Below, one piece after another: positions 7,605-20,856 of a stretch of 64,000 nucleotides of DNA. The DNA comes from Barnesiella intestinihominis (GTDB lineage Bacteria; Bacillota; Clostridia; Oscillospirales; Oscillospiraceae), in NCBI GenBank assembly GCA_963650135.1, contig CAVJLG010000058.1, positions 436 through 64,435 on the forward strand, read 5' to 3'. The first letter of the stretch is position 1; the number at the start of each line of letters is the position of its first letter. The translations under genes and the position numbers were made by a program. The notes below the pieces were generated by a model that saw only the letters and a program-made list of their open reading frames with translations, ran no database searches and had not been told where the DNA came from.

Positions 7605-8783
7605 TTATTCCCCCCTAACGCCCATATGGGTGTATACTTCGCCAACCTCGCCGGTTTCGGCAATGTGCTCCAGCCGCTGATACAGAGCCGCAATGTCGCC
7701 GGTGGACACGTCTCTGCCGCCCAAGCCATAGACCACATTGATGAGCTTGGGTCGATGCTCCAGATCATACAGTGCACTGCGGGTTTCCGCAAAAATCGGG
7801 CCGCCGCAAGCGCTAAAGCCCTCGGACTTGTCCATGACTGCCACGGCCTTGCAATGAGACAGGGCCTGTGCCAGTTCCTCTGCCGGGAACGGACGGAATA
7901 CGCGAAGCTTAATGAGGCCCACCTTTTTGCCCTGGGCCCGGAGCTGATCCACTGTGGCCTTGGCAGTACCGGCAGTGGAGCCAATGAGCACCAGCGCTTC
8001 CTCCGCGTCCTCCATGCAGTATTCCTCGAAGAAGCCATAGGTTCTGCCAAACTGCTCGCCAAAGCGCTTGCCCTGCTCGAGAATGGCCTGCTTTGCGTCC
8101 TTCATGGCCTCAGCTTCCTGCTTTTTATGCTCGAAATAGTAATGGGTCACGTCATAGGGGCCCACCGCCATCGTCTCTCCGGCCTTCAAAAGGGAATGCT
8201 CGGGATGATATTCGCCCACAAAGCCCTTGACCTCGCCATCCTCCAGGAGCTCAATGTTCTCCACTGCGTGGGATGTGATAAAGCCGTCCATGCAGATCAT
8301 CACCGGCAGCCGAACCGCCTCGGCAATGGGGAAGGCCTGGACGTAGTTGTCGTAGACCTCCTGGTTGTTCTCCGCATAAATCTGAATCCAGCCCGCATCC
8401 CGTGCGCCCATGGCGTCGGAATGGTCGTTGTTGATGTTGATGGGGCCGGACAGCGCACGGGTAGAAACCGCCAGAACAATGGGAAGGCGGCTGGACGCTG
8501 CCACATATAAAAGCTCATACATCAGTGCCAGGCCGCAGGAGGAGGTAGCGCTGATGGCCCGTCCGCCAGCCGCTGCGGCGCCGATGCAAACAGACATGGA
8601 GCTGTGCTCGGATTCCACCGTTACCAGCTCGGTATGTACCTTGCCGTCCGCCACATACTGGGCAAAATACTGGGGGATCTCCGTGGAGGGAGTGATGGGA
8701 AATGCGCCCATTACGTCCGGGTCAATCTGCCGCATGGCCACGGCTACCGCTTCGTTGCCGGAAAGTCTGTCGAGATGTGCCAT
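7605..8783 (-). CDS. 2-oxoacid:ferredoxin oxidoreductase, alpha subunit (PorA/VorA type)
   Basis: LSGNEAVAVAMRQIDPDVMGAFPITPSTEIPQYF...ESEHSSMSVCIGAAAAGGR. Confidence 0.9.
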   Translation of the reverse strand: MAHLDRLSGNEAVAVAMRQIDPDVMGAFPITPSTEIPQYFAQYVADGKVHTELVTVESEHSSMSVCIGAAAAGGRAISATSSCGLALMYELLYVAASSRLPIVLAVSTRALSGPININNDHSDAMGARDAGWIQIYAENNQEVYDNYVQAFPIAEAVRLPVMICMDGFITSHAVENIELLEDGEVKGFVGEYHPEHSLLKAGETMAVGPYDVTHYYFEHKKQEAEAMKDAKQAILEQGKRFGEQFGRTYGFFEEYCMEDAEEALVLIGSTAGTAKATVDQLRAQGKKVGLIKLRVFRPFPAEELAQALSHCKAVAVMDKSEGFSACGGPIFAETRSALYDLEHRPKLINVVYGLGGRDVSTGDIAALYQRLEHIAETGEVGEVYTHMGVRGE

Positions 8784-9085: not shown

Positions 9086-9663
9086 CCCTGTACCTCCTCC
9101 ATGGAAATGCTCAAAACCTTCATATTGCCCGCGATGACCTGGGGCTTGGTGGCAAATTTATGGTGGAAGGACTCCTCCATATCCGCCTTAAACTTCTCCG
9201 GCTCTACCACGCCGCTGACCTTTACCGTGGCTGCCAGCATAGGGGTATTGGGGAATACCTTGCCCAGGATCTCTTTGGAAATTCCGTTGGCATCGATGGT
9301 GCAGACCCGGCCCGCATAGCCGCCCAGCAGCGGACGAATTTCCTCCGGGGTCTTCTTTGTATTGATGATAATCGCGCCGGATTCCTTCAGTCCTGCGGTT
9401 ACGTCCACGCAGTCGATAAGGCCCTCGTCAACCACCACCACATAGTCCGGCTCATAGATATTGGAATGAATGCTGCACCGCTGGGTGCTGATTCGGTTAT
9501 AGGCTGTGATGGGGGCGCCGCTGCGCTCCGGGCCGTATTCCGGGAAGCCCTGCACATATTTCCCCGACGAAAACGCCGCATCCGCCAGCAGCAGACATGC
9601 GGTTTTTGCGCCCTGTCCGCCGCGGCCATGCCAGCGAATCTCCACCATATCCTGATTGTTCAC
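9082..9663 (-). CDS. 2-oxoacid:ferredoxin oxidoreductase, gamma subunit
   Basis: EIRWHGRGGQGAKTACLLLADAAF. The start is set at GTG 9663, which has GGGGAGG 7 nt upstream. The alternative ATG is at 9648. The track start at 9756 would run through the leader terminator. Confidence 0.85.
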   Translation of the reverse strand: MNNQDMVEIRWHGRGGQGAKTACLLLADAAFSSGKYVQGFPEYGPERSGAPITAYNRISTQRCSIHSNIYEPDYVVVVDEGLIDCVDVTAGLKESGAIIINTKKTPEEIRPLLGGYAGRVCTIDANGISKEILGKVFPNTPMLAATVKVSGVVEPEKFKADMEESFHHKFATKPQVIAGNMKVLSISMEEVQG

Positions 9664-9701
9664 AAAAATACCTCCCCGTTTTTGATGCAGCCGGAGGATA
9701 C

Positions 9702-9953
9702 AAAAAGCGGCCTCGTCCGTAAAGGGACGAAAGCCGCAAACGCTTCGTATAACCACCCGTTACTGCATACCAACATATGCATCCCCGGATAACGGCAGGG
9801 TACCGGCAGCGCCTACTACGATCTTTTGGGCTGCTGTTCAGAAGTGATGTTCAGGTCGCCGCTACTATCACCGGGCTCTCACCGCCCCCGGCTCGCTTTG
9901 GAGTTTGCCTGCGTCCTACTGTCTTCGTCATTACATTTACAGTGTTTTGAACT
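9702..9953 (-). promoter_or_regulatory. T-box riboswitch leader, predicted Ile (AUC) specifier, with terminator/antiterminator
   Basis: Read in RNA sense. Stem I has a K-turn-like AUGACGAAG, AGUA in the specifier loop, the AG bay AGCGAG, the distal loop GGUGAGAG and GAUAGUAGC. The specifier is AAC-AUC-A before CUUC. The T-box is GGG-UGGUUAU-ACGAAG...CUUUCGU-CCC. It competes with the terminator GCGGCUUUCGUCC/GGACGAGGCCGC + U5 (9702-9737). Confidence 0.75.
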
Positions 9954-9989: not shown

Positions 9990-10192
9990 TATGCAATTCC
10001 CGTTTCACGCAACAACCTTTTTGCCGTTTTTTTCGCGGTTTTTGTACAAGTTGCGCAATCATCTGTGCATGTCCGGTGTACACAAGTGTTCCCTTGGCGC
10101 ATCAGATGAATATCTTTCATGCGTCTCCGTCATTGCAAGTTCTCCGTCTTTTGATCTGCAAAAATAATTTTGCATTTTTCTCACAAAACCCC

Positions 10193-10221
10193 TTGACAGA
10201 TTTTCGTTTCTGTTGTATATT
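10193..10221 (+). promoter_or_regulatory. Sigma-A promoter of the orphan non-coding transcript
   Basis: TTGACA (10193-10198), 17-nt spacer, TATATT (10216-10221). The palindrome TGCAAAA-ATAA-TTTTGCA lies at 10157-10174, just upstream. Confidence 0.6.
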
Positions 10222-10406
10222 GTAGACACAAAGAAGAAAGGAATGATTCCAATGAAGTAACCTAGCACGACAGTTCAGCGAGCGACTCTGTCGGAAGATT
10301 TGCAGGTTTGATATGTGTAATCTTGCATCATTTATTTTCAGATGATTGAAACCCCGCCTAATGTTCTTATCCGGGATTTCCGGTTGAAAATAGATATTCC
10401 AACACT

Positions 10407-10720
10407 GGGAGGTACACTCCGATGTACTAACTGTACTGATCGAAGTTTTGTCCGATCCACCCACCGATGGAGGCAAGGATCCCATGCACAGCTGATATTT
10501 CTTCAGTTCGTCAAATTCGAAATTTTATGACAAGTCCCCGCATGGCAATCGCCGTCCGGGTAATCAAATTGGAGGTAAATTCCCATGTACTGATCCGTCA
10601 ATCGTCCAGACGCCATTTTGTTGGAGGCTCGGGTCCCATGAAAAACTAATGCGGAGATTCCGCACATTTGATCGAATTTTGATCCACAATATTCTGGAGG
10701 ACAGTCCCGTGAACAGATGA
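10407..10720 (+). repeat. Five dispersed modules (U)GGAGG-N5-6-UCC(C)-AUG/GUG followed by 1-2 codons and a stop
   Basis: The five modules are:
- 10407-10430: GGGAGGuacacUCCgAUG UAC UAA.
- 10469-10495: GGAGGcaaggaUCCCAUG CAC AGC UGA.
- 10571-10593: GGAGGuaaauUCCCAUG UAC UGA.
- 10623-10649: GGAGGcucgggUCCCAUG AAA AAC UAA.
- 10696-10720: GGAGGacagUCCCGUG AAC AGA UGA. Confidence 0.7.
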
Positions 10721-10806
10721 TCTGGCAATGACGCCACAGTACCTTTGTAAACAATAATTTCATATGAAAGGATGAGAGGGGTATGAGTGAACCCACTCAG
10801 CAGTAG

Positions 10807-10850
10807 CTGCCGTGTATGGTGAAGAAGGATACCATGCACGGCAGTTTTTT
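10807..10850 (+). terminator. Strong rho-independent terminator of the orphan transcript
   Basis: 14-bp stem ctgccgtgtatggt / accatgcacggcag, a 10-nt loop, then T6. Confidence 0.85.
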
Positions 10851-10864
10851 GCGCCCATTTCATC

Positions 10865-10902
10865 AAAAAGGACCCGGCACAGCTTCGTGCCAGGTCCTTT
10901 TC
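10865..10902. terminator. Terminator of the glycogen/thpR operon (minus strand; also U-rich on the plus strand)
   Basis: Stem aggacccggcac / gtgccaggtcct with one mismatch, flanked by A5 on the left and TTTTC on the right. Confidence 0.7.
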
Positions 10903-11433
10903 TTATAATAGCCCCGCATGAAATACGGGTACATATACGGTGCTGCCCCGAATCCGCCGGGATTCCATAAGCCATAGCCGCTGCACCCGAATGTTCACCG
11001 GCGTCGCAGCTTCCGGAATCGCCCCATCTTTCAGTTGGCACCGGCGTGCCAGCGTGATATGGGGCACAAATTCCCGATGCTCCACCGCAAACCCGTTTTC
11101 CTCCAGCAGTTCCCCCAGCGCACGGGCAATCGCCGCCGCTTCCGGGCTGTTTCCGGTGAGATACCATAACCGTTCCCTGCCCCGCCCGGCAAAGCTTCCA
11201 TAGGCGTCCAATGTGATCGAAAAGGGTGCAGATTTCCGGGCCACGGCAGTTAAAATCCCCTTTAGCGCCTCCACCCGTTCTGGTGGAATCTCTCCAAGGA
11301 ATTGCAGGGTCATGTGGAGATTTTCAGTTGTCGTATCGCGCCCAGACTGTGCCACTGCCCAGAGTTTTGTCTGCTGCGCCTGAATCTGTATTTTCTCCGT
11401 TTCCGCCGGAACCAGCGCATAGAATAGCCTCAC
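10903..11433 (-). CDS. thpR: RNA 2',3'-cyclic phosphodiesterase (2H family, LigT/ThpR)
   Basis: Two HxT motifs: LHMTLQFLG and PHITLAR. The start is set at GTG 11433-11431, which overlaps the upstream stop (GTGA). The track start at 11484 lies inside the upstream gene. Confidence 0.8.
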   Translation of the reverse strand: MRLFYALVPAETEKIQIQAQQTKLWAVAQSGRDTTTENLHMTLQFLGEIPPERVEALKGILTAVARKSAPFSITLDAYGSFAGRGRERLWYLTGNSPEAAAIARALGELLEENGFAVEHREFVPHITLARRCQLKDGAIPEAATPVNIRVQRLWLMESRRIRGSTVYVPVFHAGLL

Positions 11434-14400
11434 AGGATGCCGCCTGTTCTCAGCTGCTCCAATTGCTCCGCCGTCATCTGCCATTTCCAGTTGCCCGTGG
11501 GAACCCCAGGCACGTTAATGCGCGCTTCATCTCCCAGGCCCAGCACATCCTGTACCGGGAAGATTACGGCAGCCGCATGAGATTCCAGCAATTCATTTAT
11601 AATTTGCTCCGGCGCAGTGTCGCTCCCCTGCGTCTCCAAGAAGCCCTTTAGCGTCTGGTTATCGTGGGTGCCGCTGAAGAATACGCGATTTTCCGCTTCC
11701 TCCGGCATCATTTCCGCCATCTCTTGGGCGTTAAACTGCCAGACATTCATGCCCGGCAGGCCCGTATGCCGCAGGAGCACCGTCACCTGACTGTCCAGCG
11801 CGCCCAGGTCCTCCGCGATAATCGGCAATTGGCCCAGCTTTTCCGCCAGCGCCCGGAATAGTGCCACCCCGGGCCCCTTCATCCAATAGCCGCTCTTCGC
11901 CGTTTTCTCCGCCGGAATCGCATAATAGGCTGCAAAGCCCCGGAAATGGTCCATCCGCACGAAGTCGAATTGCGAAAGTGCCTGCTTTACCCGCTTCGTC
12001 CACCAATCATAGTCATCCTGGGCCATCTTCTCCCAATCATAGAGCGGATTGCCCCAATCCTGCCCCTCCGGCGTGAAATAGTCCGGCGGGCAGCCGGCGC
12101 GCAGGGTGGGATAGCCTTTCTCGTCCAGCTGAAACAGCTCACGACGGGCCCAGGTGTCCGCCCCATCCACCGCCGCGTAAATGGGAAGGTCCCCAATCAG
12201 CGCAATGCCCAGGGCTTCGGCCCGTTTTTTCAGCCGGTTCCACTGGTAGAAGAAGCGATATTGCTCCTGCCGCAGGGCCTCCAGCTCTTTTGCATACCGC
12301 TTCCGAAGGGCCGGAAAGTCGGTGCGGTTCCGCTGCTCATCCGGCCAGCACTGCCACGGGCGATTTTCATTCTCCCGGCGCAGTACCGTAAAGAGCACAT
12401 AGTCCTCCAGCCAGAAGGCATTCTCCCGGCAGAATGCCGCATACCCAGCCATATCCACCGGAATTTCCGGCGCAATATACCGAGGATCCCCGGCGAAAAT
12501 ACCGCGGCTGGAGTAGGGCGAATCTCCGTCTCCCACCGGGCACAGGGGCAGCAGCATCCAGTTCTGATAGCCTGCCCGGTGAATCGCCTCCAGGAAATCA
12601 TAAGCGCCCTGGCCCATGGTTCCGCCCGGCAGCGAAAAGATCGGGCACAGGATTCCCTTGCCCTTCGGCTTTTTCACCAGCTCCGGCAAGGGCGAATAGT
12701 CCGGCTGCTCCCCTTCCCGGTAGAGCATAGCTCCGGTGCAAGGCTCCAGTATCAACGTTTCGCCGGCTACCACCGCGCCCGACAGCAAATCCAGCCATTG
12801 GCGATCACCGTCTACATTCACGGTCTGCTGCATCCAGGAGCGGTTGACATAAAGTTCAATTCGAGTATCCTGCCACCGGCGTTCCAGTAGAAAAACCGCA
12901 TCATTCACCGCCGTATACTGCGCCGTACCATAGGTCAGCACCGGATATTCCTTTCGAAGGTTCGACAGCATCCGCACATGGTACTGTAAATCGCCGTTTT
13001 CCCGGCCCCAAGGGAAGGTTCCTCGGTTGAAGGGATCGGCATACCCCTCCAGCCCCGTTTCGTCGCCATAATACACGCAGGGTACCCCCGGGAACGCAAA
13101 CAGCAGCACATCCAGCAGCCGAAGCCGCCGCTCTGCCATGCTCCGCTGTTCCGCAGGCAGCCGATAGCTCTCCCGCTCCGCCTCAGACAGTCCCTCCGGC
13201 GCCTCTCCCAACACCGTAAGGATGCGCGGGGTATCATGGGTGCCCACCAAATTCAGCGCTCCATACAGCGCCGTTCCCGGATAGTTCTCCCGAATGGACT
13301 CCATCTCCTCGGCGAATTCTCTCGCAGACTTTTTCCCGAGCAGGAATGCCACCGCACCGTCCCGGAACGGATAGTGCATGGTGCAGTCCAACTCCCGCCC
13401 CAGCAGATATTCCCGCAGCCGGTCATAGCTGATTTTATGGCTGGCGTCCTCCCAGACCTCTCCCAGCAGCAGCACGTCCTCCGTCTCCGTTTTACAGGCG
13501 TTCCGGATTTCCGCAACAAATGGGTCCGGCAGCTCATCCGCCACGTCCAGCCGCCATCCAGAGGCCCCCAGGCGCAGCCATTTCCGGATCACCCCATGTT
13601 CTCCGCAGATGAGTTCCCGATAGCCCGGGTCCATTTCCTCCACATCCGGCAGGGAATCCACGCCCCACCAGCACTCATACCCGGCGGAATATTGGTCCCC
13701 AAAGCGATACCAGCTGTCATAGGGGCTTGGCTTTTCCCCATAGGCCCCGGGCTGGGGATAGTTGCCCCAGCGGTTAAAATAGATGCTGTCGTCACCGGTA
13801 TGGCTGAACACGCCATCCAGAATCACCCGGATGCCCATGGCTTTCGCCTGTGCGCAGAGATTTCGAAAGTCCTCCTCGGTACCGAAGCCCGGATCAATGG
13901 TCAGATAGTCTGCCGTGTCGTATTTATGGTTGCTGGAGGCCAAGAAAATCGGGTTCAGGTAAATCGCGCCCACCCCAAGGGACTTGAGATAGGGCAGCTT
14001 TTTCTGAATGCCCTGCAAATTTCCCCCGAAAAATGGCCAGCGCGTTACCCGCTGCTTTTCATCCCGGCAATAAAAGGGCGTGTCGTTCCATTCCTGCATT
14101 ACCATACGCCGCGTGCCCTTCCAGCCCGCCGGATGAGCCGCATTCTCCTGGCACCGGAGCCAATCCGCGCCCCGTGCAAACCGATCCGGGAATATCTGAT
14201 AGACCACCGCATCCCGGTACCATTCCGGCAGCCGCTGGGGCTGATAAACGGTAATCTGCCAGGATTCCGGCTGATCGGTACACTTTCCCTGTCCACCGGT
14301 ATCCTTTCCATAGTATATCGCGCCCGCAGGTGTATCAACCCGGAAATAGTACCACACCAGTCCCGGCGTTTCTGTCTGTGTAATTTCCGCCTGATAAAGT

Positions 14401-14647: not shown

Positions 14648-16090
14648 TTATCCCATCATCTTCTGGTAGATGTCCAAATATTTCTTTGCGCTGATTTTCC
14701 AGCTAAAGTCCTGGGCCATGGCCTGCTGCCGCAGCTTTGCCCAGGCTTCGGGATGATTCCGGTAGAGCTCCACCGCCGAACCGATGCAGTTTTTCAGCTC
14801 TTCTCCGCTGGGATTCCGGAAGGAGAAGCCGGTTCCCTCGCCGGTATACCGGTTGTAGGGAATCACGCTGTCCTTGAGGCCGCCGGTTCCCCGCACCACC
14901 GGCAGCGTACCGTAGCCCATGGCGATCATCTGGCTCAGTCCGCAGGGCTCAAACAGCGACGGCATCAGCAATAGATCCCCCGCTGCATACATCCGGCAGG
15001 ACAGTGGCTCGTCAAAGGTACACCGGAATGCAATTTTCTCCGGGAATGCCGCGCTGTAATTGCCCAGCAGCCGCTGATAGCGCTCGTCGCCGGTGCCTAG
15101 AACCGCCAGCTGCACGTCCTGATGGACCAGAGATTCCAGCGCCCAGGCCAGCAGGTCCATGCCCTTCTGATCCGTCAGCCGGGAAATCAGCACCATCAGG
15201 GGCGTGTCCGGCTTCTGGGGGAGGCCCAATTCCTGTTGCAGTTCCGCCTTGCATAGCGCCTTTCCGTCCATATGCTCTGCCGAGAACGGATGAATCGCCT
15301 TTTCCGGGGAGAATTTCACCGTATCAATGCCGTTGAGAATGCCCGCCAGCCGATCCTTATGCTGACTGAGCACCCCATCGAGGCCCTCGCCGTATTGCCA
15401 GGTGCAGATTTCACCGGCATAGGTGGGGCTGACCGTGGTGATATAGTCCGTGTAATACAGGCCGCCCTGGAGGAAGTTGATGGCATCCTCATGCCACCGC
15501 AGCTGATCCGCTGCATTCTTGCAGGTATGCAGCGCCAGCAAATCGCCCAGTGCAAACTCCCCGCAAATCCCCTGGAATTTCAGGTTGTGGATGGTCAATA
15601 CCGTATGGATATGCCGGTATTCCGCAATGTCCCAATACTGCTCGTGGAGAAACACCGGCACCAGGGCCGTATGCCAATCGTTGCAGTGAATCACATCCGG
15701 GAAGAATCCGTCCAGATGCATCAGGCACTCCAGAATTGCCTTGGAGAAAAACGCCACACGCTCGCAGTCGTCTCCATAACCATAGGCGGCATCCCGGTAG
15801 AAGTAAAATTCGTTGTCCACGAAATAATACTGGATGGTTCCCACCTTTAGGGTTTCAATGCCGCAGTATTGATTTCGCCACCCCAGGGGCACCGTAAACA
15901 CCGCCAGCTTTTTCATTTTATCCCGGTATTCCGCCGGAATCTGACGGAGCTTGGGCAGAATCACACGAATCTCGCAGTTCCTCCCCTTGAGGGCAGCAGG
16001 CAGACTTCCCGCCACATCGCCCAGTCCGCCGGTCTTAATAAAAGGCGACGCCTCAAAGGCGGCAAACAGCACATTGATCTTCTTTGCCAT
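14648..16090 (-). CDS. glgA: Glycogen synthase (ADP-glucose type)
   Basis: MAKKINVLFAAFEASPFIKTGGLGDVAGSLPAAL. 480 aa. GGAGG RBS. Confidence 0.95.
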   Translation of the reverse strand: MAKKINVLFAAFEASPFIKTGGLGDVAGSLPAALKGRNCEIRVILPKLRQIPAEYRDKMKKLAVFTVPLGWRNQYCGIETLKVGTIQYYFVDNEFYFYRDAAYGYGDDCERVAFFSKAILECLMHLDGFFPDVIHCNDWHTALVPVFLHEQYWDIAEYRHIHTVLTIHNLKFQGICGEFALGDLLALHTCKNAADQLRWHEDAINFLQGGLYYTDYITTVSPTYAGEICTWQYGEGLDGVLSQHKDRLAGILNGIDTVKFSPEKAIHPFSAEHMDGKALCKAELQQELGLPQKPDTPLMVLISRLTDQKGMDLLAWALESLVHQDVQLAVLGTGDERYQRLLGNYSAAFPEKIAFRCTFDEPLSCRMYAAGDLLLMPSLFEPCGLSQMIAMGYGTLPVVRGTGGLKDSVIPYNRYTGEGTGFSFRNPSGEELKNCIGSAVELYRNHPEAWAKLRQQAMAQDFSWKISAKKYLDIYQKMMG

Positions 16091-16102
16091 GGGATCGCCT
16101 CC

Positions 16103-18420: not shown

Positions 18421-20856
18421 TTACTTCAGTTTATCGCAGTGTGCGTGCCAGATATCCTCGCAATACTGCCGAATGGTGCGGTCAGAGCTGAAATCTCCGG
18501 CCATTGCAATGTTGGTCAGGGACATTTTGCCCCAGCCGGTGGTGTCCTGATATTTCCGGGTCAGCTGCTCCCAGGTCTTGAAATAAGAGTCGAAGTCCTT
18601 CAGCACAAAATACTCGTCGTTGCCCTTGAGCAGCGCATCGTGGATACCATAGAAATTCGTCCCCATAGGCAGGAACGTACCGTCTACCAGCTGATCGCAG
18701 ATTTTCTCCAGCCGCCGATCCCCGTGGCAGGCGTCATAGGCAATGTAGCCGCCGTGGAGATAATAATTCATGACTTCATCCGCGTTCAGTCCGAAAATTG
18801 CAATGTTCTCCGGCCCAACCAGCTGCGAAATCTCCACATTCGCGCCGTCCAGGGTGCCCAATGTCACTGCGCCGTTGAACATAAACTTCATGTTGCCGGT
18901 GCCGCTGGCCTCCTTGCCCGCCGTGGAAATCTGCTCGGAAATATCCGCCGCCGGGTAGATGAGCTGGGCCGAGGAGACGTTGAAGTTCTCCAGAAACACC
19001 ACCTTGATTTTCTTGCTGACCACGGGATCGGAATTGACCAAATCCGCAATGGAGCAAATATACTTGATCGTCTCCTTGGCAAAGGCATAGCCCGCCGCCG
19101 CCTTGCCTGCAAACAGGAACGTATGGGGCACCACATCGGCATTGGGATTCTCCTTCAGGGTGTTGTACAGGTGCATCACCTTAAATGCCGCCAGCAGCTG
19201 CCGCTTATAGGCGTGGATTCGCTTCACCTGCACGTCAAATACGGAGTCGGGATCGATGGCAATGCCCATGGTTTTACCAATATAGTTGCCCAGGCGAACC
19301 TTATTCTCCCGTTTGCTCTCCCGCAGTGCCTGGAGGAATGCCGGGTCGTCCCGATAAGGCAGCAAATCATGAATATGCGCCGCATTGTCCAGCCATTCCG
19401 GCCCGATGGCGTCGGTAATCAGCCGGGATAGGCTGGGATTCGCCTCCGCCAGGAACCGCCGATGGGACACGCCGTTGGTTTTATTGTTGAATTTCTCCGG
19501 TGTCAGGGCATAAAAGTCCCGGAGCACCGAGGTTTTGAGAATTTCCGTGTGCAGCGCCGCCACACCGTTGACGCTGTAAGAGCCGATGATCGACAGGTTT
19601 GCCATATGCACCTGGCCGTCCCAGAGAATGGCGGTGTTCCGCAGACGGTCCTGCCAATCGGGCATCGAGCGGTCAAAGGCAGCACAATACCGGCGGTCAA
19701 TCTCCTCGATGATCTGATACACTCGGGGCAGCAGGGACCGCATCAGCTCAATGGACCACTTCTCCAGGGCTTCGGGCATGATGGTATGGTTGGTGTAGGA
19801 CAGGGTGCGGGTGGTAATGTCCCAGGCTTCGTCCCATTCCAGCCCCTCTTCATCCAGCAACACCCGCATCAGCTCCGGTACGCACAGGGCCGGGTGGGTG
19901 TCGTTGGTGTGAATACTGATTTTGTCCGGGAAGATGGACCAATCCGGCCCATAGTTCTTCTTAAAGTTCTTAACGATGTCCACCACACCGGCAGACACAA
20001 AGAAATACTCCTGCTTCAGCCGCAGCGCCTTACCTGCTTCGGTGCTGTCGTCGGGGTAGAGGATGCAGGTGATGGCCTCGATCTCATTGCGCTCCCGCAT
20101 GGCGCCGGAATAGTCGCCGTGGTTAAAGGCCGCCAAATCCAGTCGGGTGACCACGGGCTCCGCGCTCCAGAGCCGCAGAATATTCACTGTTTTGCCTCCG
20201 TAGCCCACAATGGGAACATCATAGGGCACCGCCAGTACCGTCATAGCATCCCGGGTTACACAGTGGAGCTTGCCGTCCGGGGTAGGAAGCTGCTCTACCC
20301 GGCCGCCGAACTGCACCGGAATGGCGTCCTCCGGGCGCTTGACCTCCCAGGGATAGCCGTTCTCCAGCCAGCTGTCCGGCTCCTCGGTCTGATATCCATT
20401 GACGATCTTCTGCCGGAACAGGCCGAACCGATACCGGATGCCCATGCCCACGCCGGGAACCCCCAGGTGCGCCATGGAATCCAGGAAGCAGGCCGCCAGT
20501 CGTCCCAAGCCGCCGTTACCAAGGCCGGGGTCCTGCTCACAGGCGCACAGGGCGTCGAGATCAATGCCCAGGTCCTTGAGTCCTTCCCGGACAGTATCCT
20601 CCTCCTGGAGGTTGATGAGATAGTTTTTCAGCAGCCGTCCAATGAGGAATTCCATGGAAAAATAGTGAACCTTCTTCTGCTGGAGGCGGATATGCCGCTG
20701 CGAGGTCTGGGTGCGCACCTTGCTCACCGAGCTGGAGAGCAGATAGACCAGCACCTCATACTGCTCAAAGGTGGTGCACTCTTCTATGGGCTTCGCCAGG
20801 GTTTCCAATGCTTTGGCCCCGTAGGCGATCTTAAAATCTTCTTTTCCCGCGAACAT
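18421..20856 (-). CDS. glgP: Glycogen/alpha-glucan phosphorylase (GT35)
   Basis: 811 aa. Contains the PLP-site block EASGTGNMKFMFNGA and GLGNGGLGRLAACFLDS. Confidence 0.9.
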   Translation of the reverse strand: MFAGKEDFKIAYGAKALETLAKPIEECTTFEQYEVLVYLLSSSVSKVRTQTSQRHIRLQQKKVHYFSMEFLIGRLLKNYLINLQEEDTVREGLKDLGIDLDALCACEQDPGLGNGGLGRLAACFLDSMAHLGVPGVGMGIRYRFGLFRQKIVNGYQTEEPDSWLENGYPWEVKRPEDAIPVQFGGRVEQLPTPDGKLHCVTRDAMTVLAVPYDVPIVGYGGKTVNILRLWSAEPVVTRLDLAAFNHGDYSGAMRERNEIEAITCILYPDDSTEAGKALRLKQEYFFVSAGVVDIVKNFKKNYGPDWSIFPDKISIHTNDTHPALCVPELMRVLLDEEGLEWDEAWDITTRTLSYTNHTIMPEALEKWSIELMRSLLPRVYQIIEEIDRRYCAAFDRSMPDWQDRLRNTAILWDGQVHMANLSIIGSYSVNGVAALHTEILKTSVLRDFYALTPEKFNNKTNGVSHRRFLAEANPSLSRLITDAIGPEWLDNAAHIHDLLPYRDDPAFLQALRESKRENKVRLGNYIGKTMGIAIDPDSVFDVQVKRIHAYKRQLLAAFKVMHLYNTLKENPNADVVPHTFLFAGKAAAGYAFAKETIKYICSIADLVNSDPVVSKKIKVVFLENFNVSSAQLIYPAADISEQISTAGKEASGTGNMKFMFNGAVTLGTLDGANVEISQLVGPENIAIFGLNADEVMNYYLHGGYIAYDACHGDRRLEKICDQLVDGTFLPMGTNFYGIHDALLKGNDEYFVLKDFDSYFKTWEQLTRKYQDTTGWGKMSLTNIAMAGDFSSDRTIRQYCEDIWHAHCDKLK

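Follow-up and report, generated by a model that had tools for sequence, protein, structure and literature searches.

In the 64,000-nucleotide (nt) stretch of DNA analysed here (positions 436 to 64,435 of contig CAVJLG010000058.1, assembly GCA_963650135.1, Barnesiella intestinihominis, GTDB family Oscillospiraceae; hereafter the window), an orphan segment of ~620 nt on the plus strand separates two gene blocks on the minus strand. To its left, a T-box leader precedes a four-subunit 2-oxoacid:ferredoxin oxidoreductase operon, and to its right lies a convergent gene, thpR (Pfam LigT_PEase / 2_5_RNA_ligase2). The initial annotation, made from the letters of the window, had described these neighbours and the low GC content of the segment between them, and both descriptions agree with covariance and Pfam scores and with the base composition, which is 44.6% GC in the segment compared with 57% in thpR and porG (the oxidoreductase gamma subunit gene) and 55.6% over the whole window. 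It had further proposed that the segment is an orphan, independently bounded, noncoding unit. This proposal is firmly supported by the sequence comparisons below, which point to a stand-alone noncoding RNA gene that is under purifying selection, has its own boundaries, is restricted, within reach of the searches, to one narrow clade, and belongs to no described family (Table 1).

Both ends of the predicted transcript are conserved. A promoter scan gave 11 of 12 consensus matches for TTGACA-17-TATATT at 10193-10221, the promoter block is 90 to 100% identical among relatives, and every copy that the promoter pattern recovered has both hexamers at this spacing. At the other end, the repeat finder returned terminator arms at 10807-10820 and 10831-10844 followed by TTTTTT; a G:C pair of this stem has become U:A in 5 sequences, four pairs show one-sided G-U changes, and 100% of its cells in the alignment remain paired. 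Judging from these signals, the RNA is probably transcribed from a strong housekeeping-type promoter, with its start placed by the -10 hexamer, and ended by its own terminator. That terminator lies 52 nt before the stop codon of the convergent thpR, and the plus strand has no downstream gene. A cis-acting leader, such as a riboswitch, T-box, or attenuator, was therefore rejected, since the RNA has its own terminator, a convergent gene comes next, and nothing follows on its strand. The promoter, the terminator, and an 18-base-pair (bp) palindrome upstream are all present as first called. The right arm of the palindrome is conserved together with the next 25 nt, but its left arm differs in most relatives.

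To trace the RNA beyond the window, we used three routes. A ThpR scan with one genome per species gave 1 locus, in an uncultured Oscillospiraceae metagenome-assembled genome from the human gut. A ThpR protein search returned relatives from 93% down to 45% identity, whose contigs were looked up for loci; the loci found share the gene order of a GH77/amylase fusion gene, thpR, a gap of ~1.3 kb, and the oxidoreductase. A metagenome scan with a pattern shared by two of the modules described below (M1 and M3) gave 21 loci, comprising 11 true copies, which belong to the same three subclades, and 10 chance matches within coding sequence. Altogether, 19 further distinct copies (11 of them full-length) were recovered from gut metagenomes, so that with the window there are 12 full-length and 8 partial copies, and all recovered copies lie between thpR and the T-box/oxidoreductase operon. 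Nucleotide identity to the window is 79 to 97% for the RNA; it is 60 to 88% for the thpR coding sequence, 74 to 92% for the GH77 gene, 68 to 90% for the spacer upstream of the promoter, 89 to 98% for the T-box, and 87 to 96% for porG and porD of the oxidoreductase. In the alignment, invariant blocks are interspersed with variable hairpins in a mosaic. Three more distant relatives, among them Intestinibacillus massiliensis, were chosen by their oxidoreductase gamma subunits (84% and 80% identity); neither the gene order nor the RNA is present in them, and no second copy was found in the window. Searches of phage and plasmid collections by blastn and three pattern scans of viral contigs gave zero matches, and a mobile or phage origin was rejected on that ground. 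Within reach of these searches, the distribution is thus one narrow clade of uncultured gut Oscillospirales.

The same alignment bears on whether the segment could be a decayed protein-coding gene or a carrier of small proteins. Open reading frames (ORFs) do exist in it, of 62 and 60 amino acids (aa) on the plus strand and of 122, 100, and 97 aa on the minus strand, and the 62-aa ORF is kept in locus L001 with an in-frame 9-nt difference. The initial annotation had spoken of short ORFs without ribosome-binding sites only, which passes over the length of those on the minus strand; none of the ORFs is conserved, matches Pfam, or follows a Shine-Dalgarno (SD) element. On neither strand does any ORF keep its frame or extent across the 12 full-length copies; the 62-aa ORF has lost its start or frame in most other copies; insertions and deletions of 1 and 2 nt are scattered along the alignment, and many are not multiples of three; and the five longest ORFs gave zero Pfam matches. 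A protein-coding gene or pseudogene was thus rejected for want of an in-frame conserved ORF or a protein family match, and the idea of a decayed or small protein gene is largely refuted and, in our estimate, extremely improbable.

Comparison with known RNA families was equally negative. Rfam 15 gave zero matches at the gathering score over the whole window and, at E <= 10, zero matches within 10200-10860, the weak ones falling on terminators only; the diverged copy L012 gave one chance-level match (12.7 bits, E = 7.2). None of the covariance models for OLE, ROOL, GOLLD, raiA, and HEARO matches, even at E <= 10, ARAGORN found zero tRNA or tmRNA genes, and Tandem Repeats Finder found zero repeats. 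A type III toxin-antitoxin (ToxI-type) or CRISPR-like repeat array was also considered and rejected, as there are no tandem repeats, the modules lie 52 to 102 nt apart in unique sequence, and a terminator and a convergent gene come next. In the literature, we found no description of such an RNA. Neither a known RNA family nor a decayed gene was found, and it is this absence of Pfam, Rfam, phage, plasmid, and viral matches, together with conservation and the lack of a conserved ORF, that argues for a real, noncoding, clade-restricted RNA gene.

Table 1. Features of the RNA and its surroundings (positions are those of the window; helices and hairpins are predicted)
Feature	Position	Strand	Remarks
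T-box leader	9720-9940	-	77.6 bits, E = 1e-16; Rfam gathering score 93
Upstream element: CCGTC-containing direct repeats TCTCCGTCATT and TCTCCGTCTTT, 17 nt apart	10124-10151	+	direct repeat D6
18-bp palindrome TGCAAAA-ATAA-TTTTGCA	10157-10174	.	right arm alone conserved
Promoter: A/T-rich stretch TTTTTCTCACAAAACCCC, -35 TTGACA (10193-10198), 17-nt spacer, -10 TATATT (10216-10221)	10175-10221	+	
Noncoding RNA (predicted transcript, ~620 nt)	10228-10851	+	79-97% identity in 11 relatives; frame-breaking indels; no Pfam/Rfam match; G-U pairs fit plus strand only
Module M0: GGAAU-GA-UUCC-A-AUG AAG UAA	10240-10260	+	invariant in all copies; predicted 5' strand of P1
Helix P1c: ACCU (10260-10263) with GGGU (10558-10561)	10260-10263, 10558-10561	+	continues P1; 100% of cells paired
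Hairpin P5: 11-bp stem, GAAA:UUUC, CCCG:CGGG	10330-10395	+	inverted repeat I1; probability 0.91-0.92; 100% of cells paired
Module M1: GGAGG-UACAC-UCCG-AUG UAC UAA	10408-10430	+	relatives AUG UAC UGA
Small hairpin V1 (GAUCG...CGAUC), then CAC	10438-10460	+	direct repeat D3; stem in 2 of 3 clades, 88.9% of cells paired
Module M2: GGAGG-CAAGGA-UCCC-AUG CAC AGC UGA	10469-10495	+	
Variable region V2	10496-10536	+	clade-specific hairpins; both-side changes in two pairs of helix 11, with 71.6% of cells paired
Nearly invariant block CCCGCAUGGCAAUCGCCGUCCGGGU	10537-10561	+	3' end is 3' strand of P1c
Module M3: GGAGG-UAAAU-UCCC-AUG UAC UGA	10571-10593	+	invariant except one spacer base; at P1/P6 junction
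Helix P6, enclosing M4 and M5	10587-10618 with 10715-10742	+	probability 0.50-0.77
Module M4: GGAGG-CUCGGG-UCCC-AUG AAA AAC UAA	10623-10649	+	
Hairpin GCGG-AGAUU-CCGC	10651-10663	+	probability 0.90; invariant stem, variable loop
Small hairpin V3 (GAUC...GAUC), then CAC	10669-10686	+	helix 19: 2 of 4 pairs change on both sides across clades; 92.1% of cells paired
Module M5: GGAGG-ACAG-UCCC-GUG AAC AGA UGA	10696-10720	+	
Nearly invariant 3' block GAAAGGAUGAGAGGGG(U/C)AUGAGUGA(N)CCCACUCAGCAGUA	10766-10805	+	predicted hairpin 10784-10799
Intrinsic terminator: 17-bp stem, loop, U6 tract	10805-10851	+	inverted repeat I4; pairing probability 0.96
Hairpin ending convergent thpR, outside the RNA	10866-10901	-	inverted repeat I3

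The RNA carries a series of modules that resemble translation-start sites. Five of them (M1 to M5), each with GGAGG, UCC, a start codon, and a stop codon soon after, had been listed from the outset with the mini-ORFs MY, MHS, MY, MKN, and VNR, and all five are as written. The pattern GGAGG-N3-7-TCCNRTG matches seven times in the 64 kb where 0.47 matches are expected, none of 100 shuffles reaches seven, and five of the seven matches lie within 300 nt on the plus strand (10408, 10469, 10571, 10623, and 10696). Given this excess and its clustering on one strand, the module array is not a product of chance. Two weaker units flanking the array had been noted as well; the one reading MK is in fact invariant and has the same GGA...UCC-N-AUG layout, and is thus counted as module M0, the sixth of the series; the one reading MKG is lost in one clade. 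GGAGG upstream of a start codon is this organism's own ribosome-binding signal. The other two matches of the pattern are both on the minus strand: 16088-16102 is the real ribosome-binding site of a 480-aa gene (GGAGGCGATCCCATG), and 20314-20332 lies inside an 811-aa ORF.

The modules are kept in the orthologous loci of relatives, an outcome in favour of the initial proposal. In the five canonical modules, GGAGG, the RUG start (AUG or GUG), and the second codon never vary in any copy, and UCCN varies in three columns, so that 3 of 75 columns of the module core (GGAGG, UCCN, RUG, and second codon) are variable compared with 182 of 520 columns elsewhere in the RNA (Fisher p = 1e-9). Between GGAGG and UCC, 11 of 26 spacer columns are variable, a share similar to that in the rest of the RNA, and the spacer length never changes. 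The stops are also close: the minigene layout of SD element, start, few sense codons, and in-frame stop is found in M0, M1, M3, and M5 in 12 of 12 full-length copies, with the first in-frame stop 2 to 3 codons after the start, and in M2 the stop comes after 3 to 5 codons, lying 6 nt further on and still in frame in the most distant clade. For M4, the count is 3 codons in most copies, and its UAA is still in frame in L011 and L016, where one base was lost and another gained; M5 has its stop in all copies, with a UGA to UAA change in L011. The other two frames are mostly open for 6 to 54 codons, except for UGA inside AUGA/GUGA and for +2 frames that are short in some copies of M0, M3, and M4. 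So early a stop has a chance of ~0.16 to 0.25 at any random position of the RNA.

Several observations concern single modules. In the window species, a 9-nt insertion after the M1 start (10425-10433), present in no other clade, duplicates GTACT and turns AUG UAC UGA into AUG UAC UAA CUG UAC UGA. In L029, the RNA copy (7905-8255) stops directly after GGAGGTAAATT of M3 and continues as TGCA-ATG into a nitroreductase-like ORF (MEILELMKQRHSVRQYKD..., 8089-8466), a fusion in which the M3 SD element would serve a real gene; the ORF is absent from the window and the other loci, and the junction, 215 nt from the end of a low-coverage metagenome contig, may be an assembly chimera or a real rearrangement. 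NAC codons make up 5 of the 8 sense codons after the starts (UAC, CAC, UAC, AAC, and AAC at 10425, 10487, 10588, 10644, and 10712), and M2 of the distant clade adds CAC/UAC and Ile codons; NAC codons for Tyr, His, and Asn are read by queuosine-modified tRNAs, and this pattern, observed post hoc, may be structural (GUAC and UGCA palindromes). Finally, the start of porG (9640-9675, minus strand), GGGAGG-N7-GUG AAC AAU, resembles GGAGG-N8-GUG AAC AGA of M5. Modules as mimics of the neighbouring gene start were rejected, as porG of the distant clade starts AUG AAC GAU and M5 is unchanged there; without such covariation, the likeness is probably coincidence.

We next asked how the modules are placed in the fold, using pairing probabilities averaged over the 12 full-length homologs and, for covariation, a 19-sequence alignment with a curated set of 129 pairs. 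In the curated structure, 96.5% of cells are paired, and changes on both sides of a pair occur in 39 cells compared with 13.6 +/- 3.2 in shuffles (0 of 500 reach 39) and with at most 12 in slid controls, where partners were shifted by 1 to 3 columns. G-U pairs of the helices are consistent with the plus strand only, and the minimum free energy (MFE) z-score is -2.6. Compensatory changes therefore give the predicted fold moderate support and not proof, since the structure was derived from the same closely related sequences.

The predicted fold is built around two long-range helices. P1 would join the 5' end to M3, pairing GGAAU (10240-10244) with AUUCC (10579-10583) and UUCCAAU (10247-10253) with AUUGGAG (10568-10574) at a probability of ~0.71 to 0.77; in its continuation, P1c, 6 sequences have G:C in place of an A:U pair, and pairing is preserved in the U:G, C:G, and U:A variants as well. 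P6 shows an A:U to C:G change in 5 sequences and two double changes in L014, and also some unpaired cells (84 to 100% paired per segment). Both long-range helices are predicted in each of the 12 homologs, with probabilities of 0.5 to 0.77. P5 holds the longest invariant block of the RNA and has an apical loop that is variable in sequence and length. The small hairpins followed by CAC that had been noted before modules 2 and 5 are both present (V1 and V3). The block CCCGCAUGGCAAUCGCCGUCCGGGU is complementary to M2 (GGAGGC:GCCGUCC and CCAUGC:GCAUGG) or could alternatively form a local hairpin (10537-10560), and the region 10528-10541 likewise has two alternative partners, 10297-10302 or 10278-10293. 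The hairpin at 10784-10799 is 96.5% paired and is broken in L031 and L032. A pairing of the M4 spacer with distal segments, seen by eye, was rejected because the apparent matches are out of register between clades.

In the predicted ensembles, the start-site elements are partly masked. The unpaired probability of GGAGG is 0.20 to 0.37 compared with an RNA mean of 0.39, and 0.08 to 0.37 over the five GGAGG elements and GGAAU of M0; that of the UCC(C) elements is 0.18 to 0.47, with the neighbouring GGA as the main predicted partner. GGAG and UUCC of M3 would pair with M0 (0.69 to 0.77), and G of the M3 AUG with C10742 (0.72); M4 and M5 would pair with each other (0.27 to 0.43; UCC of M4 with GGA of M5, 0.42 to 0.43), and GGA of M2 with a UCC upstream of M1 (0.23 to 0.25). 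Each GGA can, as first suggested, pair with the UCC of its own module, but in the ensemble folds M3, M4, and M5 favour partners elsewhere, in other modules. Local self-hairpins were rejected as the masking structure, because isolated modules fold weakly and inconsistently (-6 to -11 kcal/mol).

These features raise the possibility that the RNA is a large structured molecule whose function resides in its fold, as with OLE, ROOL, or GOLLD. It might, for example, be a ribozyme, assemble with itself, or form the scaffold of a ribonucleoprotein; GGAGG and UCC would then serve as helix strands, and the start and stop look would be a by-product or insulation against stray ribosomes. Its two long-range helices, its excess of both-side changes, and its mosaic of invariant blocks and variable hairpins are in keeping with this, and natural large RNAs are known to form RNA-only assemblies (PMC12286853). 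Like OLE, ROOL, GOLLD, raiA, and HEARO (PMC12286853, PMC9723947), the RNA has a size of ~600 nt, its own promoter and terminator, and long-range helices; unlike them, it occurs in a single clade, escapes their covariance models, and carries repeated start-site mimics, which are not a feature of those families. However, no GGAGG or RUG position varies, though helix strands normally tolerate compensatory change, and helices alone leave the repeated early in-frame stops and the fixed spacer length unexplained. In addition, the MFE z-score is modest and the distribution is very narrow compared with known ornate RNAs. We regard a purely structural role as somewhat unlikely.

The repetition of the modules suggests a second alternative, a CsrB/RsmZ-type protein sponge whose GGA modules would titrate CsrA or another translational repressor of GGAGG-AUG regions. 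In Bacillus subtilis, the SD region of hag mRNA is a CsrA binding site, and GGA sites are numerous in CsrB-type RNAs. As in CsrB and RsmZ, we see a stand-alone RNA with a strong-looking, conserved promoter and many invariant GGA/SD-like repeats that mimic the organism's real start regions, with spacers free in sequence and fixed in length. In contrast to CsrB and RsmZ, to which it is unrelated by sequence or in Rfam, the RNA has its GGA elements predicted mostly in stems and not in hairpin loops, and it contains start and stop codons; a sponge would not need the early in-frame stops. No CsrA-like match occurs in the 64-kb window or the fetched loci, which is uninformative at that scope. Firmicutes are not known to have either a CsrB/RsmZ-type RNA or an RNA antagonist of CsrA, the latter role being taken there by the protein FliW. 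On balance, a protein sponge seems unlikely.

RNAs with C-rich seeds, LhrC among them, mask the SD sequences of their targets, and Firmicutes have long regulatory RNAs of 400 to 1100 nt. The five UCC(C) and five GGAGG elements, all invariant, could accordingly be read as the seeds of a base-pairing regulator or as a GGAGG sponge for a C-rich small RNA (sRNA). UCCC is a hallmark of Staphylococcus aureus regulatory RNAs such as RNAIII and the Rsa RNAs (PMC2790875), in which repeated UCCC can pair with SDs, and in Bacillus subtilis the C-rich sRNA RoxS is soaked up by RosA, whose G-rich motifs can pair with C-rich RNAs (PMC8216469). In contrast to these RNAs, with which it has no homology, the present RNA has both kinds of motif in one molecule, predicted to pair mutually. 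Its C-rich elements, beside complementary GGAGG, are thus predicted to be largely paired, whereas seeds normally lie in loops, and the invariant RUG, the invariant second codon, and the in-frame stops would go unexplained. We consider regulation by base pairing very unlikely.

Our preferred reading, held tentatively, is that of a structured RNA whose gated start-site mimics would engage 30S subunits or initiating ribosomes. We favour start-site mimics because the modules combine an invariant SD element and start codon with an early stop and with spacers whose length is fixed and whose sequence is free. This is the pattern expected of sites read by the initiation machinery and not of ordinary helix strands, which tolerate compensatory change. 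M0 to M5 may serve as landing sites, at which 30S subunits or initiating ribosomes would bind, make a di- or tripeptide at most, and leave. Access would be gated, with each GGA paired with the UCC of the same or another module (M0:M3, M4:M5, and the UCC upstream of M1 with M2), and these same pairings would build the long-range helices of the fold. Two kinds of output can be envisaged: a titration of the initiation machinery or of particular tRNAs, like that by toxic minigenes, or a ribosome-dependent protection or remodelling of an RNA whose real job would lie in other conserved blocks. With modules spaced as they are, little naked RNA would be left between bound ribosomes.

Both outputs have partial precedents. 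Minigenes of two to eight codons sequester tRNA as peptidyl-tRNA (PMC2490762), and in Bacillus subtilis RNA is shielded from RNase J1 by ribosomes that initiate at a strong SD (PMC5737220). In form, minigenes come closest to the present RNA: the modules share with those of the lambda bar type (PMC2490762, PMC8708949) the succession of SD, start, one to a few sense codons, and stop, with a predicted di- or tripeptide, and ribosome loading with peptidyl-tRNA drop-off is a possible consequence here too. However, known minigenes are single units in phage genomes or mRNAs, whereas here six sit on a dedicated, conserved, structured RNA, with an additional invariant UCC and second codon and with several units predicted to be masked. 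Similarly, STAB-SD elements of Bacillus (hbs mRNA, PMC5737220) are strong SD-like elements that do not make protein, can bind ribosomes, and shield from RNase J1. M0, ~13 nt from where the RNA is predicted to begin, resembles them in position, but STAB-SD elements are single, 5'-proximal, and located on mRNAs, in contrast to six across a noncoding RNA. A more specific version of the preferred reading, in which a dedicated and abundant decoy RNA would use its six gated SD/start/stop modules to capture 30S subunits or initiating ribosomes, or to drain tRNAs as peptidyl-tRNA, and so tune global initiation, appears quite unlikely.

Several points weigh against ribosome engagement. The M4 stop is gone in three lineages, leaving ORFs of 10, 12, and 24 codons behind a GGAGG and an AUG that are still invariant, so that the immediate stop is not an absolute rule. 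The distance from GGAGG to start in M1 to M5 (9, 10, 9, 10, and 8 nt) agrees with the 8 to 10 nt first given, but it lies at the long end of the organism's own range, as most real genes of the window have 5 to 8 nt. Helices are predicted to lock several modules, M3 strongly, and would be an obstacle to 30S subunits unless ribosomes were loaded during transcription. The covariation behind these helices is limited because there are only three subclades, with at least 79% identity. Moreover, ribosome binding does not require an invariant UCC or second codon, and protein recognition or multiple alternative pairings would account for them equally; the early stops could be insulation that keeps accidental ribosomes from unwinding a structural RNA. 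Of the two functions first proposed, a minigene array and a sponge with SD/GGA mimics, both are still candidates. The early in-frame stops, the invariant GGAGG, RUG, and second codon, and the fixed spacer length speak for a translation-type reading, whereas the predicted M0/M3 and M4/M5 pairing, the lost M4 stops, and the long spacing speak against modules that are ribosome-ready.

Few long bacterial RNAs combine a promoter of their own and strong conservation with the lack of an assigned function, and every one found to date has started a new line of research. The family described here is new; its kind, the stand-alone bacterial noncoding RNA, is known, and the array of gated start/stop modules is an unusual variant of it. 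Its most strictly conserved parts look like ribosome start places closed by an early stop and, according to the predictions, partly masked by pairing. If ribosomes do bind, this would be the first natural RNA to decoy the translation-start machinery or to use ribosomes as protective or remodelling partners, and a decoy of this kind, for which no natural example has been described, would do for ribosomes what sponges such as CsrB do for proteins. Should ribosomes not bind, it would still be a new large structured RNA from abundant, uncultured gut bacteria. The narrow distribution and shallow covariation limit the claim.

Some features around the RNA deserve mention. The CCGTC direct repeats lie ~45 to 70 nt upstream of the -35 hexamer, and CCGTCATTGCA...TC(C/T)(G/T)TC is found in all relatives with minor variants, although the spacer around it is just 68 to 90% identical; the repeats may bind a regulator or belong to a longer transcript. 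From the same region, CGTCATTGC is complementary to GGCAATGACG within the RNA (10719-10733; inverted repeat I2). At the 3' end, L031 (~1737-1760) has lost the upper half of the terminator hairpin and retains CUGCCG-UACA-CGGCAG and the U tract, a shorter valid hairpin, so that the module-like sequence in the terminator loop and 3' arm is dispensable. Beyond it, the terminator scan lists the inner 16 nt of the thpR hairpin (10876-10891) as a terminator-like site of the plus strand.

The link between the RNA and ThpR rests solely on synteny in one narrow clade, whose gene order has had too little time to change. There is an overlap of 55 nt (window 11430-11484) between the longest thpR ORF and the 3' end of a 1067-aa alpha-amylase/GH77 fusion gene, and the called genes of relatives overlap by 4 nt; from this overlap, thpR is probably cotranscribed with a glycogen or maltodextrin gene cluster rather than linked to the RNA. 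On the other side, the T-box scores below the Rfam gathering score and is therefore missed at curated thresholds. An alignment reading of its specifier loop (GAA-C-AUC-A) suggests a candidate isoleucine (AUC) specifier, which would suit a branched-chain 2-oxoacid enzyme.

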